From Escherichia coli (GTDB lineage Bacteria > Pseudomonadota > Gammaproteobacteria > Enterobacterales > Enterobacteriaceae): a stretch of DNA of 64,000 bases. The position numbers were made by a program, and so were the translations under genes. Positions 55,814-62,301 of the stretch are shown one piece after another (the first letter of the stretch is position 1; the number at the start of each line of letters is the position of its first letter). The notes below the pieces were generated by a model. The model searched no databases, was not told the DNA's origin, and worked only from the letters and a program-made list of their open reading frames with translations. The DNA lies in assembly GCF_051903065.1 (NCBI RefSeq), contig NZ_CP178438.1. One strand, 5' to 3'.

Positions 55814-56395
55814 ATGACTGACTACCTGTTACTGTTTGTTGGAACTGTACTGGTCAATAACTTTGTACTGGTCAAGTTTCTCGGTCTCTGTCCGTTTATG
55901 GGAGTTTCCAAAAAGCTGGAAACCGCGATGGGCATGGGGCTGGCAACAACGTTTGTGATGACGCTGGCGTCTATTTGCGCCTGGCTTATCGATACGTGGA
56001 TTTTGATCCCACTTAATCTGATTTACCTGCGCACCCTGGCATTTATTCTGGTGATTGCTGTGGTCGTGCAGTTCACCGAGATGGTGGTGCGCAAAACCAG
56101 CCCGGTGCTTTACCGTTTGCTGGGGATTTTTTTGCCGCTTATCACCACCAACTGTGCCGTGCTCGGCGTGGCGTTGCTGAATATCAATCTCGGGCACAAT
56201 TTCTTGCAGTCGGCGCTGTACGGTTTTTCCGCCGCTGTCGGTTTTTCGCTGGTGATGGTTCTCTTCGCAGCCATCCGCGAACGCCTTGCTGTGGCTGATG
56301 TCCCGGCACCTTTTCGCGGTAATGCCATTGCGTTAATTACCGCAGGTCTTATGTCTCTGGCCTTTATGGGCTTTAGTGGTTTGGTGAAGTTGTAA
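55814..56395 (+). CDS. rsxA: Rnf/Rsx ion-translocating oxidoreductase subunit A
   Basis: 193 aa, polytopic; first gene of the rsx operon. Confidence 0.95.
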
Positions 56396-56973
56396 TGAAT
56401 GCTATCTGGATTGCCGTTGCCGCCGTGAGCCTGCTGGGCCTGGCGTTTGGCGCCATTCTGGGTTATGCCTCCCGCCGTTTTGCGGTGGAAGACGATCCGG
56501 TCGTTGAGAAAATTGACGAAATCTTACCGCAGAGCCAGTGTGGTCAGTGCGGTTATCCCGGCTGTCGCCCCTACGCGGAAGCCATCAGCTGTAACGGTGA
56601 AAAAATCAACCGTTGCGCCCCTGGTGGCGAAGCTGTGATGCTAAAAATTGCCGAGTTGCTTAATGTCGAGCCGCAGCCGCTGGATGGCGAAGCGCAAGAG
56701 CTAACGCCTGCGCGGATGGTGGCGGTTATTGATGAAAATAACTGTATTGGCTGCACTAAATGTATTCAGGCGTGTCCGGTAGACGCCATCGTTGGCGCTA
56801 CCCGAGCCATGCATACGGTAATGAGTGAACTCTGTACGGGCTGCAATTTATGTGTTGATCCGTGCCCGACGCACTGCATCTCGTTGCAACCGGTCGCAGA
56901 AACACCTGACTCCTGGAAATGGGATCTGAACACCATTCCCGTGCGTATCATTCCCGTGGAACACCATGCTTAA
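56395..56973 (+). CDS. rsxB: Rnf/Rsx subunit B (Fe-S)
   Basis: 192 aa with Cys clusters ([33 protein letters not shown]); 1-nt overlap with the rsxA stop. Confidence 0.95.
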
Positions 56974-59284
56974 GTTATTCTCTGCATTCAGAAAAAATAA
57001 AATCTGGGATTTCAACGGCGGCATCCATCCACCGGAGATGAAAACCCAGTCCAACGGTACACCCCTGCGCCAGGTACCCCTGGCGCAGCGTTTTGTTATT
57101 CCACTGAAACAGCATATTGGCGCTGAAGGTGAGTTGTGCGTTAGCGTCGGCGATAAAGTATTGCGCGGCCAGCCGCTTACCCGTGGTCGCGGCAAAATGC
57201 TGCCTGTTCACGCGCCCACCTCGGGTACCGTTACGGCTATTGCGCCCCACTCTACGGCTCATCCTTCAGCTTTAGCTGAATTAAGCGTGATTATTGATGC
57301 CGATGGTGAAGACTGCTGGATCCCGCGAGACGGCTGGGCCGATTATCGCTCTCGCCGTCGCGAAGAGTTAATCGAGCGCATTCATCAGTTTGGTGTTGCG
57401 GGGCTGGGTGGTGCAGGATTCCCGACAGGCGTTAAATTGCAGGGCGGCGGAGATAAGATTGAGACGTTGATTATCAACGCTGCTGAGTGCGAGCCGTACA
57501 TTACCGCCGATGACCGTTTGATGCAGGATTGCGCGGCTCAGGTCGTAGAGGGTATTCGCATTCTTGCGCATATTCTGCAGCCACGCGAAATTCTTATCGG
57601 CATTGAAGATAACAAACCGCAGGCGATTTCCATGCTGCGCGCGGTGCTGGCGGACTCTCACGATATTTCTCTGCGGGTGATTCCAACCAAATATCCTTCT
57701 GGCGGTGCTAAACAATTAACCTACATTCTGACCGGGAAGCAGGTTCCACATGGCGGGCGTTCATCCGATATCGGCGTATTAATGCAAAACGTCGGCACTG
57801 CTTATGCAGTGAAACGTGCCGTTATTGATGGCGAGCCGATTACCGAGCGTGTCGTAACCCTGACTGGCGAAGCAATCGCTCGCCCGGGCAACGTCTGGGC
57901 ACGGCTGGGGACGCCAGTGCGTCATTTATTGAATGACGCCGGATTCTGCCCTTCTGCCGATCAAATGGTGATTATGGGCGGCCCGCTAATGGGCTTTACC
58001 TTGCCATGGCTGGATGTCCCGGTCGTAAAGATTACCAACTGTCTGTTGGCTCCCTCTGCCAATGAGCTTGGCGAACCACAGGAAGAACAAAGCTGCATCC
58101 GGTGTAGCGCCTGTGCTGACGCCTGCCCTGCGGATCTTTTGCCGCAACAGTTGTACTGGTTCAGCAAAGGTCAGCAACACGATAAAGCTACCACGCATAA
58201 CATTGCCGACTGCATTGAATGTGGGGCTTGCGCGTGGGTTTGCCCGAGCAATATTCCCCTGGTGCAATATTTCCGTCAGGAAAAAGCTGAAATTGCGGCT
58301 ATTCGTCAGGAAGAAAAGCGCGCCGCAGAAGCCAAAGCGCGTTTCGAAGCGCGCCAGGCTCGTCTGGAGCGCGAAAAAGCGGCTCGCCTTGAACGACATA
58401 AGAGCGCAGCCGTTCAACCTGCAGCCAAAGATAAAGATGCGATTGCTGCCGCTCTGGCGCGGGTGAAAGAGAAACAGGCCCAGGCTACACAGCCTATTGT
58501 GATTAAAGCGGGCGAACGCCCGGATAACAGTGCAATTATTGCAGCACGGGAAGCCCGTAAAGCGCAAGCCAGAGCGAAACAGGCAGAACTGCAGCAAACT
58601 AACGACGCAGCAACCGTTACTGATCCACGTAAAACTGCCGTTGAAGCCGCTATTGCCCGCGCCAAAGCGCGCAAGCTGGAACAGCAACAGGCAAATGCGG
58701 AACCAGAACAACAGGTCGATCCGCGCAAAACCGCCGTCGAAGCCGCTATTGCCCGTGCCAAAGCACGCAAGCTGGAACAGCAACAGGCTAATGCAGAGCC
58801 AGAAGAACCGGTCGATCCGCGCAAAGCCGCCGTCGAAGCCGCTATTGCCCGTGCCAAAGCGCGCAAACTGGAACAGCAACAGGCTAATGCGGAGCCAGAA
58901 GAACAGGTTGATCCGCGCAAAGCTGCCGTCGAAGCCGCTATTGCCCGCGCCAAAGCACGCAAGCTGGAACAGCAACAGGCTAATGCGGAACCAGAAGAAC
59001 AGGTCGATCCGCGCAAAGCTGCCGTCGAAGCCGCTATTACCCGTGCCAAAGCGCGCAAACTGGAACAGCAACAGGCTAATGCGGAGCCAGAAGAACAGGT
59101 TGATCCGCGCAAAGCCGCCGTCGAAGCCGCTATTGCCCGTGCCAAAGCGCGCAAACTGGAACAGCAACAGGCTAATGCGGAGCCAGAAGAACATGTTGAT
59201 CCGCGCAAAGCGGCAGTTGCCGCGGCTATTGCCCGCGTTCAGGCCAAAAAAGCCGCCCAGCAAAAGGTTGTAAACGAGGACTAA
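56966..59284 (+). CDS. rsxC: Rnf/Rsx subunit C (NADH-binding, 2x[4Fe-4S]) with a C-terminal Ala/Lys/Gln-rich repeat region
   Basis: 772 aa with two ferredoxin-type clusters ([24 protein letters not shown]) followed by six 32-aa tandem repeats. Confidence 0.95.
58622..59245 (+). repeat. tandem array of 6 near-perfect 96-bp repeats plus a degenerate partial 7th, in frame within rsxC
   Basis: Unit starts at 58622, 58718, 58814, 58910, 59006 and 59102 (gatccgcgcaaa[g/a]c[c/t]gccgtcgaagccgctattgcccg…ggaacagcaacaggctaatgcggagccagaagaacaggt[t/c]). Each unit encodes [32 protein letters not shown]. Confidence 0.95.
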
Positions 59285-60967: not shown

Positions 60968-60970
60968 AGC

Positions 60971-61666
60971 GTGAGCGAAATTAAAGACGTTATTGTTCAG
61001 GGGTTGTGGAAAAACAACTCTGCGCTGGTCCAGTTGCTCGGCCTTTGTCCTCTGTTGGCGGTCACGTCCACTGCCACTAACGCTCTGGGTTTAGGACTTG
61101 CGACTACGCTGGTACTGACGCTGACCAACCTGACCATTTCGACGCTGCGTCACTGGACGCCAGCCGAGATCCGCATTCCCATTTACGTGATGATCATCGC
61201 CTCGGTGGTCAGCGCTGTACAGATGCTGATCAACGCCTACGCCTTTGGCCTGTATCAATCATTAGGGATTTTTATTCCGCTGATTGTCACTAACTGTATC
61301 GTTGTGGGCCGCGCTGAAGCCTTCGCCGCCAAAAAAGGTCCGGCGCTTTCGGCACTGGACGGCTTTTCAATTGGTATGGGCGCAACCTGCGCTATGTTCG
61401 TGCTGGGTTCACTACGCGAAATTATCGGCAATGGCACATTGTTTGACGGTGCAGATGCGCTGTTAGGTAGCTGGGCAAAAGTATTACGCGTGGAGATTTT
61501 CCACACCGACTCCCCTTTCCTGCTGGCGATGCTGCCACCAGGTGCATTTATTGGCCTGGGACTGATGCTGGCAGGAAAATACCTGATTGATGAAAGAATG
61601 AAAAAGCGCCGTACTGAAGCAGCTGCCGAACGTGCATTGCCAAACGGTGAAACAGGGAATGTCTGA
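60971..61666 (+). CDS. rsxE: Rnf/Rsx subunit E
   Basis: 231 aa; paralogous to rsxA. Confidence 0.95.
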
Positions 61667-62301
61667 TGAACAAAGCAAAACGCCTGGAGATCCTCACTCG
61701 CCTGCGTGAGAACAATCCTCATCCCACCACCGAGCTTAATTTCAGTTCGCCTTTTGAATTGCTGATTGCCGTACTGCTTTCCGCTCAGGCGACCGATGTC
61801 AGTGTTAATAAGGCGACGGCGAAACTCTACCCGGTGGCGAATACGCCTGCAACGATGCTTGAACTGGGCGTTGAAGGGGTGAAAACCTATATCAAAACGA
61901 TTGGGCTTTATAACAGCAAAGCAGAAAATATCATCAAAACCTGCCGTATCTTACTGGAGCAGCATAATGGCGAGGTTCCGGAAGATCGTGCTGCGCTTGA
62001 AGCCCTGCCCGGCGTAGGTCGTAAAACAGCCAACGTCGTATTAAACACTGCATTCGGCTGGCCGACTATTGCTGTCGACACGCACATTTTCCGCGTTTGT
62101 AATCGTACTCAATTTGCGCTGGGGAAAAACGTCGAACAGGTAGAAGAAAAGCTACTGAAAGTGGTTCCGGCAGAGTTTAAAGTCGACTGCCACCATTGGT
62201 TGATCCTGCACGGGCGTTATACCTGCATTGCCCGCAAGCCCCGCTGTCGCTCTTGTATTATTGAAGATCTTTGTGAATACAAAGAGAAAGTTGACATCTG
62301 A
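61666..62301 (+). CDS. nth: endonuclease III (DNA glycosylase/AP lyase, 4Fe-4S)
   Basis: 211 aa; HhH-GPD (LPGVGRKTANVVL) and C-terminal CX6CX2CX5C; 1-nt overlap with the rsxE stop. Confidence 0.95.
   Translation: MNKAKRLEILTRLRENNPHPTTELNFSSPFELLIAVLLSAQATDVSVNKATAKLYPVANTPATMLELGVEGVKTYIKTIGLYNSKAENIIKTCRILLEQHNGEVPEDRAALEALPGVGRKTANVVLNTAFGWPTIAVDTHIFRVCNRTQFALGKNVEQVEEKLLKVVPAEFKVDCHHWLILHGRYTCIARKPRCRSCIIEDLCEYKEKVDI

Follow-up and report, generated by a model that had tools for sequence, protein, structure and literature searches.

In a 64,000-nucleotide stretch of Escherichia coli DNA (contig NZ_CP178438.1, referred to here as the window), the six rsx genes of a membrane electron-transfer complex and nth, which encodes the DNA-repair enzyme endonuclease III (EndoIII), are so closely packed that every stop codon lies within a few nucleotides (nt) of the next start codon or beyond it. 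The locus, rsxABCDGE-nth, raises the question of whether synthesis of the complex and of the repair enzyme is translationally coupled, with ribosomes handed from one cistron to the next, or whether such packing is simply the form that a compact operon takes. The seven genes constitute one transcription unit, as already published, and we consider it probable that translation passes across its junctions by termination-reinitiation, or at least by locally enhanced initiation. This reading draws on the geometry of the junctions, on the behavior of the last of them across species, and on published experiments with other overlapping gene pairs.

Identity of the locus and geometry of its junctions

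The range 55814-62301, which a sequence-only reading had assigned to the operon, runs exactly from the start codon of rsxA to the stop codon of nth (Table 1). Within it the genes are contiguous and co-directional in the gammaproteobacterial order ABCDGE, according to both the table of open reading frames (ORFs) and the RefSeq annotation. All seven proteins exceed the curated cut-offs of their NCBIfam models, which are equivalogs for RsxA, RsxB, RsxC, RsxD and RsxG, and a subfamily model (NF009070) for RsxE; the six Rsx subunits A, B, C, D, G and E are complete. RsxB carries two C..C..C...CP motifs (at residues 117 and 147) and RsxC two of the ferredoxin type (at residues 377 and 416), and motifs of the flavin-attachment type occur in RsxD (SGAT and SQAT) and at residue 171 of RsxG (TGAT); in Rnf and Nqr complexes, the cysteine motifs of the B and C subunits and the S/T-x-A-T motifs of D and G are those which bind cofactors. 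The Rsx complex reduces the [2Fe-2S] cluster of SoxR, according to the K-12 annotation and to the literature (for example PMC11729352). The seventh protein is identical at 208 of 211 residues to EndoIII of solved structure (PDB 2ABK; E = 2.5e-139, aligned over residues 1-211), and at as many to K-12 Nth, from which it differs by A63T, P152L and G195R; the cluster-ligand motif C-X6-C-X2-C-X5-C is present (Cys187, Cys194, Cys197 and Cys203). Given its 99% identity to the characterised K-12 enzyme, Nth would be expected to have glycosylase and apurinic/apyrimidinic lyase activity on oxidised pyrimidines.

The 6.7 kb surrounding rsxABCDGE-nth find a match in 5,424 of 5,426 complete E. coli genomes, the closest being that of strain ECNB21-M121 (NZ_CP083585.1), which differs at a single base (62248) between 54200 and 63900. 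In this genome as in K-12 MG1655, RefSeq places ydgT (cnu) and ydgK upstream of the locus, and dtpA 610 nt downstream of nth.

Read directly and by script, the six junctions measure, in gene order, -1, -8, 0, +3, +3 and -1 nt. The four that had been described from the letters alone hold at the level of single bases: A56395 is common to the rsxA stop and the rsxB start (TAATG, -1); the rsxC ATG begins at 56966, inside rsxB, which ends at 56973 (ATGCTTAA, -8); the rsxC TAA ends at 59284 and is directly followed by the rsxD ATG at 59285 (0); and A61666 is common to the rsxE TGA and the nth ATG (TGATG, -1). To these must be added the two junctions that the sequence-only reading had passed over, rsxD to rsxG (TAA-ACC-ATG) and rsxG to rsxE (TAA-AGC-GTG), both of which carry 3-nt spacers.

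Several lines of evidence argue that the start codons on which these distances depend are not artefacts of ORF calling. The RefSeq coordinates agree in NZ_CP083585.1, and the junction distances in K-12 MG1655 are identical. Six of the seven proteins align from position 1 of their NCBIfam profiles, and residue 12 of RsxC falls on profile position 2; the next in-frame ATG of rsxC is codon 25, and a start there would cut off the beginning of the profile-aligned block. For comparison across species, a genome collection was scanned with Nth as query and the best 80 matches, representative of species, were retained; all are Enterobacterales except one record labelled Vibrio, and the genera covered are Escherichia, Citrobacter, Enterobacter, Serratia, Yersinia, Pectobacterium, Dickeya, Pantoea, Erwinia, Proteus, Providencia, Xenorhabdus, Photorhabdus and Budvicia. 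With start codons placed by homology, the homologous position holds a start codon for nth in 80 of 80 of these related species, and for rsxE and rsxG in nearly all (for rsxE, GTG in Escherichia and ATG in other genera). The full-length alignment of Nth to 2ABK supports the nth start in the same way.

None of the gaps between cistrons exceeds 3 nt, which leaves no room for a terminator and a promoter. Elsewhere in the window, counted to the right of its leftmost ~1.8 kb (which are not collinear with the reference genome), gaps of 3 nt or less separate just 4 of ~33-35 same-strand neighbour pairs (uidAB, -4; rstAB, +3; mdtJI, -14; ynfGH, +1), against six of six here, and six consecutive tight junctions thus make a non-random run. 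Within the genome at large such a layout is unsurprising, since 707 of 2,987 unidirectional E. coli pairs (24%) lie at -8 to +6 nt, a range into which all six junctions fall, the preferred overlaps being -4, -1 and -8 (PMC10666635). Short overlaps are enriched among subunits of heteromeric complexes (PMC10666635), and a tight run of this kind is typical for the operons of such complexes.

Table 1. Features of the rsxABCDGE-nth locus and its surroundings, in positions of the window
Feature	Position	Strand	Description and evidence
Sigma-70 promoter-like site, TTGTCG-17-GATAAT	55757-55785	+	Consensus match, 9/12; 29 nt 5' of rsxA ATG; candidate operon promoter
ydgK terminator-like hairpin (55759-55792), then UUUUUUAUUU	55759-55802	+	RNA fold; upstream unit boundary
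rsxA	55814-56395	+	193 amino acids (aa), membrane subunit; NF003481 equivalog 364.7 bits (cut-off 240), aligned 1-192; RefSeq
rsxB	56395-56973	+	192 aa, Fe-S subunit; NF003475 336.6 bits (cut-off 203)
rsxC	56966-59284	+	772 aa; NF003454 871.2 bits (cut-off 345)
Intrinsic terminator-like hairpin in rsxC (hairpin 57065-57088)	57065-57098	+	Strongest + strand match of terminator scan
In-frame tandem repeat, unit 96 bp (32 aa)	58622-59235	+	TRF: 6.4 copies, 92% matches, score 1004; 3' region of rsxC
rsxD	59285-60343	+	352 aa; NF002011 634.1 bits (cut-off 415), aligned 1-351
rsxG	60347-60967	+	206 aa; NF002519 361.2 bits (cut-off 178)
rsxE	60971-61666	+	231 aa, GTG start; NF009070 365.8 bits (cut-off 184), aligned 1-225
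Shine-Dalgarno-like CAGGGAA	61653-61659	+	Last rsxE codons, 6 nt before nth ATG; anti-Shine-Dalgarno duplex -5.1 kcal/mol
nth	61666-62301	+	211 aa, endonuclease III; NF007978 equivalog 476.5 bits (cut-off 405), aligned 1-211
Private single-nucleotide polymorphism	62248	+	C here vs G in nearest genome; nth codon 195 (62248-62250), Nth G195R
Hairpin GGGGTAACACCGATTACCCC	62308-62327		7 nt after nth stop; fold and terminator scan; probable 3' end of unit

One transcript and a probable hand-over of ribosomes

That these genes form a single operon is established rather than new. Gifford & Wallace 2000 give nth as the terminal gene of the operon in the title of their paper; PMC5021804 shows rsxABCDGE-nth as an operon, following RegulonDB; and PMC2907692 treats it as one unit, all seven genes of which are expressed more highly in an rpoS mutant. 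The single-operon reading with nth last, proposed afresh from the letters, had therefore already been published, and the gene order and the general meaning of -1, -4 and -8 overlaps are likewise already known from literature or annotation. What the present analysis adds is confirmation of the junctions at base level, a measurement of the rsxE-nth distance across species, and a plausible connection of the rsxB/rsxC overlap with a published terminator within rsxC.

A single mRNA would probably start in the 76-nt spacer between ydgK and rsxA and end at the hairpin just past nth. Folded as a stretch of 86 nt, the spacer as a whole is not significantly structured (z = -1.2). A consensus scan of the plus strand found no sigma-70-like site between 55785 and 61907, and hence none inside rsxE. 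The terminator-like hairpin of ydgK has an outer stem of 8 bp (GUCGCCUG/AGGCGGC) followed by a U-run, and overlaps the candidate rsx promoter; ydgK seems to end, and the rsx unit to begin, within the same 45 nt. The hairpin downstream of nth has its T-run on the minus-strand side (GGGGTAATCGGTGTTACCCC TTTTCTT), where no minus-strand gene converges; on the plus strand an A-run precedes it and just a weak U-rich stretch follows, without a good U-run. The candidate promoter and this hairpin are both matches at the level of consensus. Of 81 sequences compared across species, 53 have a hairpin in the 90 nt that follow the nth stop, 21 of them with a T-run, and these hairpins are unrelated in sequence. 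In an Rfam scan of 54000-64000 (E <= 1), no known RNA element was found; the sole match, to COG3860 RNA within rsxA, scored 20.3 bits (gathering score 42.5; E = 0.47) and was dismissed as chance.

Such an mRNA would specify the six subunits of Rsx, an Rnf-type electron-transfer complex of the membrane that maintains SoxR in its reduced state, together with a [4Fe-4S] DNA glycosylase, EndoIII. As every stop lies between -8 and +3 nt from the next start, a ribosome ending one cistron would already be positioned on the start of the next, and most of these starts have a Shine-Dalgarno (SD)-like motif in the upstream coding sequence. Synthesis of successive subunits would in this way be tied together, and ribosomes would be kept close behind RNA polymerase. 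The geometry is compatible with termination-reinitiation, the mechanism by which other native E. coli -1 overlaps have been shown to couple. We favour it where the junction measures -1, -8 or 0, and consider it probable at the +3 junctions also. Of 14 overlapping pairs examined with two reporters in H. volcanii and E. coli, five of them from E. coli, 13 proved strictly coupled, and moving the stop codon away cost 5-70% of reinitiation at +2 nt and 80-100% at +38 nt (PMC6728339, PMC10666635).

The starts themselves differ in how far they appear equipped to recruit ribosomes independently. Predicted duplexes with the anti-SD sequence range from -4.5 to -6.4 kcal/mol for rsxD, rsxG, rsxE and nth, and the weakest signals are those of rsxB (-3.8 kcal/mol) and rsxC (-3.3 kcal/mol), which are therefore the starts likeliest to need hand-over from the upstream cistron. 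The RNA around the six junctions folds no better than shuffled sequence (z = +0.27 to +1.98). Coupling through the unmasking of structured starts was considered and ruled out, none of the six junction windows being more stable than shuffles, and unstructured junctions favour reinitiation over this mechanism.

Comparison of species at the last junction gives a view of how far close packing is maintained. The rsxE gene precedes nth on the same strand at all 80 loci, and the distance between them is -1 at 36, -4 at 29, -8 at three, 0 and +1 at one each, +9 to +16 at eight, and +79 and +114 at one each, so that the gap falls between -8 and +1 nt in 70 of the 80 species; those with spacers of 9-16 nt include Proteus, Providencia, Xenorhabdus, Budvicia and Dickeya. 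In these loci nth is thus always the neighbour of rsxE, with a strong preference for close spacing, while the precise overlap shifts and a few intervening nucleotides can be accommodated. From rsxG to rsxE, the distances -4 (32 loci), +3 (21), +2 (12) and -8 (11) together account for 76 of 80, and from rsxD to rsxG the distance is mostly +9 or +10, with +3 confined to Escherichia and a few others. RsxE ends in different residues from species to species (GETGNV, AEKA, GKA and others), but in most of them a GGGAA or GAGAA run is kept 6-8 nt before the nth start. Mean anti-SD energy upstream of nth is -4.68 kcal/mol, versus -1.93 kcal/mol at internal control positions in rsxE, and values of -4.4 kcal/mol or lower occur at 60% of loci versus 11% of controls.

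The start codon of nth is itself variable within this collection. At 13 loci from Pectobacterium, Pantoea and Erwinia, nth begins with GTG within a GTGA (-4) overlap, and two Budvicia loci have a TTG start after an 11-nt spacer. The two longest spacers belong to Kluyvera genomosp. 3 (79 nt) and to a record labelled Vibrio sinensis (114 nt; NZ_QVMU01000020.1, match at 3501-4133), whose Nth is 86% identical to that of E. coli, a value that seems high for Vibrio. The linkage of nth to rsx probably extends to Vibrio, Haemophilus and Pseudomonas.

The findings so far could also describe an operon that is compact and co-transcribed but lacks functional coupling, in which each cistron has its own ribosome-binding site and the overlaps are neutral by-products of compaction, for example through turnover of start and stop codons that extends one ORF into the next. 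The SD-like motifs of rsxD, rsxG, rsxE and nth, the lack of structure at the junctions, and the frequency of the same spacing among E. coli gene pairs (PMC10666635) would all suit this explanation, as would a register that shifts among -1, -4 and -8 and opens to +9 to +16 nt with gene order kept. We nevertheless judge it unlikely. The outcome of the published tests, in which all but one of the overlapping pairs were strictly coupled, makes coupling the default expectation for such junctions; the weak signals before rsxB and rsxC make de novo initiation there less likely; and a distance of +1 nt or closer has been kept from rsxE to nth in most of the species compared.

Several considerations nonetheless weigh against termination-reinitiation across the whole unit. 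Most of the starts are preceded by an SD-like motif of their own in unstructured RNA, where a free 30S subunit could initiate independently. The species with gaps of 9-16 nt between rsxE and nth, and the two with gaps of 79 and 114 nt, together with the +9 or +10 spacing from rsxD to rsxG outside Escherichia, indicate that overlap is not obligatory. Nth is a soluble monomer and not a known Rsx subunit, hence the argument from stoichiometry fails at the last junction. Finally, binding of sigma-54 holoenzyme in vitro and an rpoN-linked change in nth mRNA, discussed below, point to nth-specific regulation beyond read-through.

If termination-reinitiation does operate here, then the position of ribosomes relative to RNA polymerase matters because there is an intrinsic terminator inside rsxC. 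The strongest plus-strand terminator match is a hairpin with a 10-bp stem of which 8 pairs are GC, a UACC loop and the tail CGUUUUGUUA; its predicted fold (-25.5 kcal/mol; z = -3.59) is equalled by none of 200 shuffles, and it is identical in K-12. It lies 28 nt 3' of PPE (codons 22-24), the only PPX motif in RsxC. In PMC5021804, an intrinsic terminator in rsxC is described just past the PPE motif; termination in vitro occurred only with NusA, and transcript downstream of it fell 1.8-fold in a delta-efp strain, in which ribosomes stall at PPX. The hairpin at 57065-57088 is most probably this terminator, an identification which we draw across a difference in distance from the PPE motif (16 nt in the paper, 28 nt as measured here). 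The terminator is ~100 nt beyond the rsxB/rsxC overlap. Loading of ribosomes onto rsxC through that 8-nt overlap would keep the lead ribosome near RNA polymerase and so suppress the hairpin, which in turn would protect expression of rsxC-D-G-E-nth. By this route, we infer, coupling would protect the distal genes from premature termination in rsxC.

The 3' region of rsxC holds the in-frame tandem repeat listed in Table 1. RsxC has 772 residues here and 740 in K-12, exactly one additional 32-residue unit, and 728 of the 772 are identical. Copy number varies among E. coli genomes, the matched spans including one of 909 nt (1101 - 2 x 96).

The rsxE/nth boundary and control of nth

Published data place a possible control element at the last junction. 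Genomic systematic evolution of ligands by exponential enrichment (gSELEX) yielded a peak for sigma-54 (RpoN) holoenzyme between rsxE and nth, at map position 1,709,534, with a positive gel shift. Depletion of nitrogen lowered nth mRNA 6.4-fold in wild type, an effect that was lost in an rpoN mutant and that the authors read as repression by bound holoenzyme (PMC8743547). A motif scan found no canonical -24/-12 element (TGGCAC-N5-TTGCW) near the rsxE/nth boundary. The best partial match, TGGCACATTGTTTGAC at 61432, lies 234 nt upstream of nth and is without the -12 GC, and weak candidates with GG/GC spacing lie at 61558 and 61569. Allowing for the offset between K-12 genome versions, the gSELEX peak would lie roughly 15 nt upstream of the nth ATG, at an array resolution of ~100 bp or more.

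The sequence-only reading had named an internal promoter with independent transcription of nth as what would overturn it. A sigma-54 peak at rsxE/nth is indeed on record; the effect reported is repressive, and independent transcription of nth does not follow from it. These data therefore leave co-transcription standing, and suggest a further, nth-proximal layer of control. One might go further and propose that nth is expressed or regulated substantially alone, through a sigma-54 site or another internal promoter in the 3' part of rsxE, such that the overlap is incidental to output. The holoenzyme peak with its gel shift, and the rpoN-dependent fall in nth mRNA, are what recommend this proposal (PMC8743547), which we regard as improbable: its own authors take the effect for repression and not for an nth promoter at work, neither a canonical sigma-54 element near the junction nor a plus-strand sigma-70-like site inside rsxE was found in our scans, the title of Gifford & Wallace 2000 has nth as the operon's terminal gene, and in the rpoS mutant expression of all seven genes changes in concert (PMC2907692).

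A different explanation for the proximity of nth to rsx would be a functional partnership, in which Rsx supplies electrons to, or otherwise services, the [4Fe-4S] cluster of EndoIII, and the proteins are made together for that reason. Adjacency of rsxE and nth has been kept at every locus compared, both partners belong to the Fe-S or redox proteins and have links to oxidative stress, and some authors have raised EndoIII as a possible additional Rnf-associated product (PMC4014512). The review that records this suggestion also states that other bacteria lack EndoIII in their rnf operons, and describes the part it plays in RNF as obscure; literature searches for an experimental link between Rnf/Rsx and EndoIII returned none. 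Adjacency conserved inside one order may, moreover, be plain inherited synteny. The functional tie between redox complex and Fe-S enzyme at which the sequence-only reading hinted thus found no supporting evidence, and we regard the partnership as very improbable. A more elaborate version, in which EndoIII depends on Rsx, for instance for the redox state of its cluster, and coupled synthesis at a membrane-tethered mRNA would deliver nascent Nth to its reductase, is likewise very improbable.

The Nth of this isolate carries substitutions of its own. The base at 62248 that separates the window from its closest relative makes codon 195 encode arginine, and an exact 71-mer containing the change occurs in none of the 5,426 complete E. 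coli genomes. Gly195, which sits between the Fe-S ligands Cys194 and Cys197, is the same at all 80 loci compared. Either a private mutation or an error of sequencing could account for the change. That it impairs EndoIII and renders the isolate a weak mutator seems improbable. The allele could matter for the mutation rate of the isolate. P152L (codon 152, 62119-62121) is shared with ECNB21-M121, at a position where 76 of the 80 species have proline and none leucine, and A63T (codon 63, 61852-61854) falls at a variable position (alanine in 67, serine in eight, threonine in four).

Wider window, significance and comparison with known systems

The spacer between nth and dtpA (62302-62911) is unusually long (610 nt) and AT-rich, and is presumably the regulatory region of dtpA; its one short ORF, of 66 aa (62429-62629), is probably spurious. 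At the other end of the window, positions 1-1824 are not collinear with NZ_CP083585.1 (~24% identity per 100 nt up to ~1825, identical thereafter), which carries a prophage integrase, an excisionase and an exonuclease there; the two strains therefore probably differ in prophage content. Between 1901 and 64000, the other single-base differences from that genome are at 5260, 15328, 21046, 23363, 28380, 30876, 35285, 38180 and 53252. By these comparisons, the strain that supplied the window is very closely related to ECNB21-M121, a meat isolate.

If coupling holds, then rsxABCDGE adds one more instance of stoichiometric co-production of a membrane complex, and nth, unusually, would be the gene of a soluble DNA-repair enzyme whose synthesis is bound up with that of such a complex.

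The nearest counterpart is rsxABCDGE-nth of K-12 MG1655 (b1627-b1633), which shares the seven genes, their order, the junctions, the rsxC hairpin and the neighbours ydgK and dtpA, and differs in an RsxC that is one 32-residue unit shorter (740 residues) and in the three positions of Nth named above (A63T, P152L and G195R here). At a greater remove stand the operons of the Rnf type (Rhodobacter nitrogen fixation), which specify an ion-translocating ferredoxin:NAD+ oxidoreductase related to Na+-NQR: the six subunits match TIGR subfamily models rnfA-G, and more weakly the NqrA-E models, and share with these systems the cysteine motifs of B and C and the S/T-x-A-T motifs of D and G, whereas the E. 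coli complex has been assigned to reduction of SoxR and not to nitrogen fixation or energy conservation. Rnf operons of other phyla have another gene order, and lack nth (PMC4014512). The C-terminal repeat of RsxC finds its parallel in the variable-number tandem repeat marker in rsxC of Erwinia amylovora, also in-frame and variable in copy number and with the same 16-residue opening motif (PMC10587187); there the unit is 40 residues in 0-5 copies, and in E. coli 32 residues, in 6.4 copies here. For the junctions themselves, the closest models are the coupled E. coli pairs hyfH-hyfI, ydbH-ynbE and menD-menH (Huber et al. 2019, 2023), which have the same -1 overlap as rsxE/nth with an SD motif inside the upstream gene. 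Such pairs often encode subunits of heteromeric complexes, which Nth is not, and their coupling was demonstrated with two-reporter fusions.

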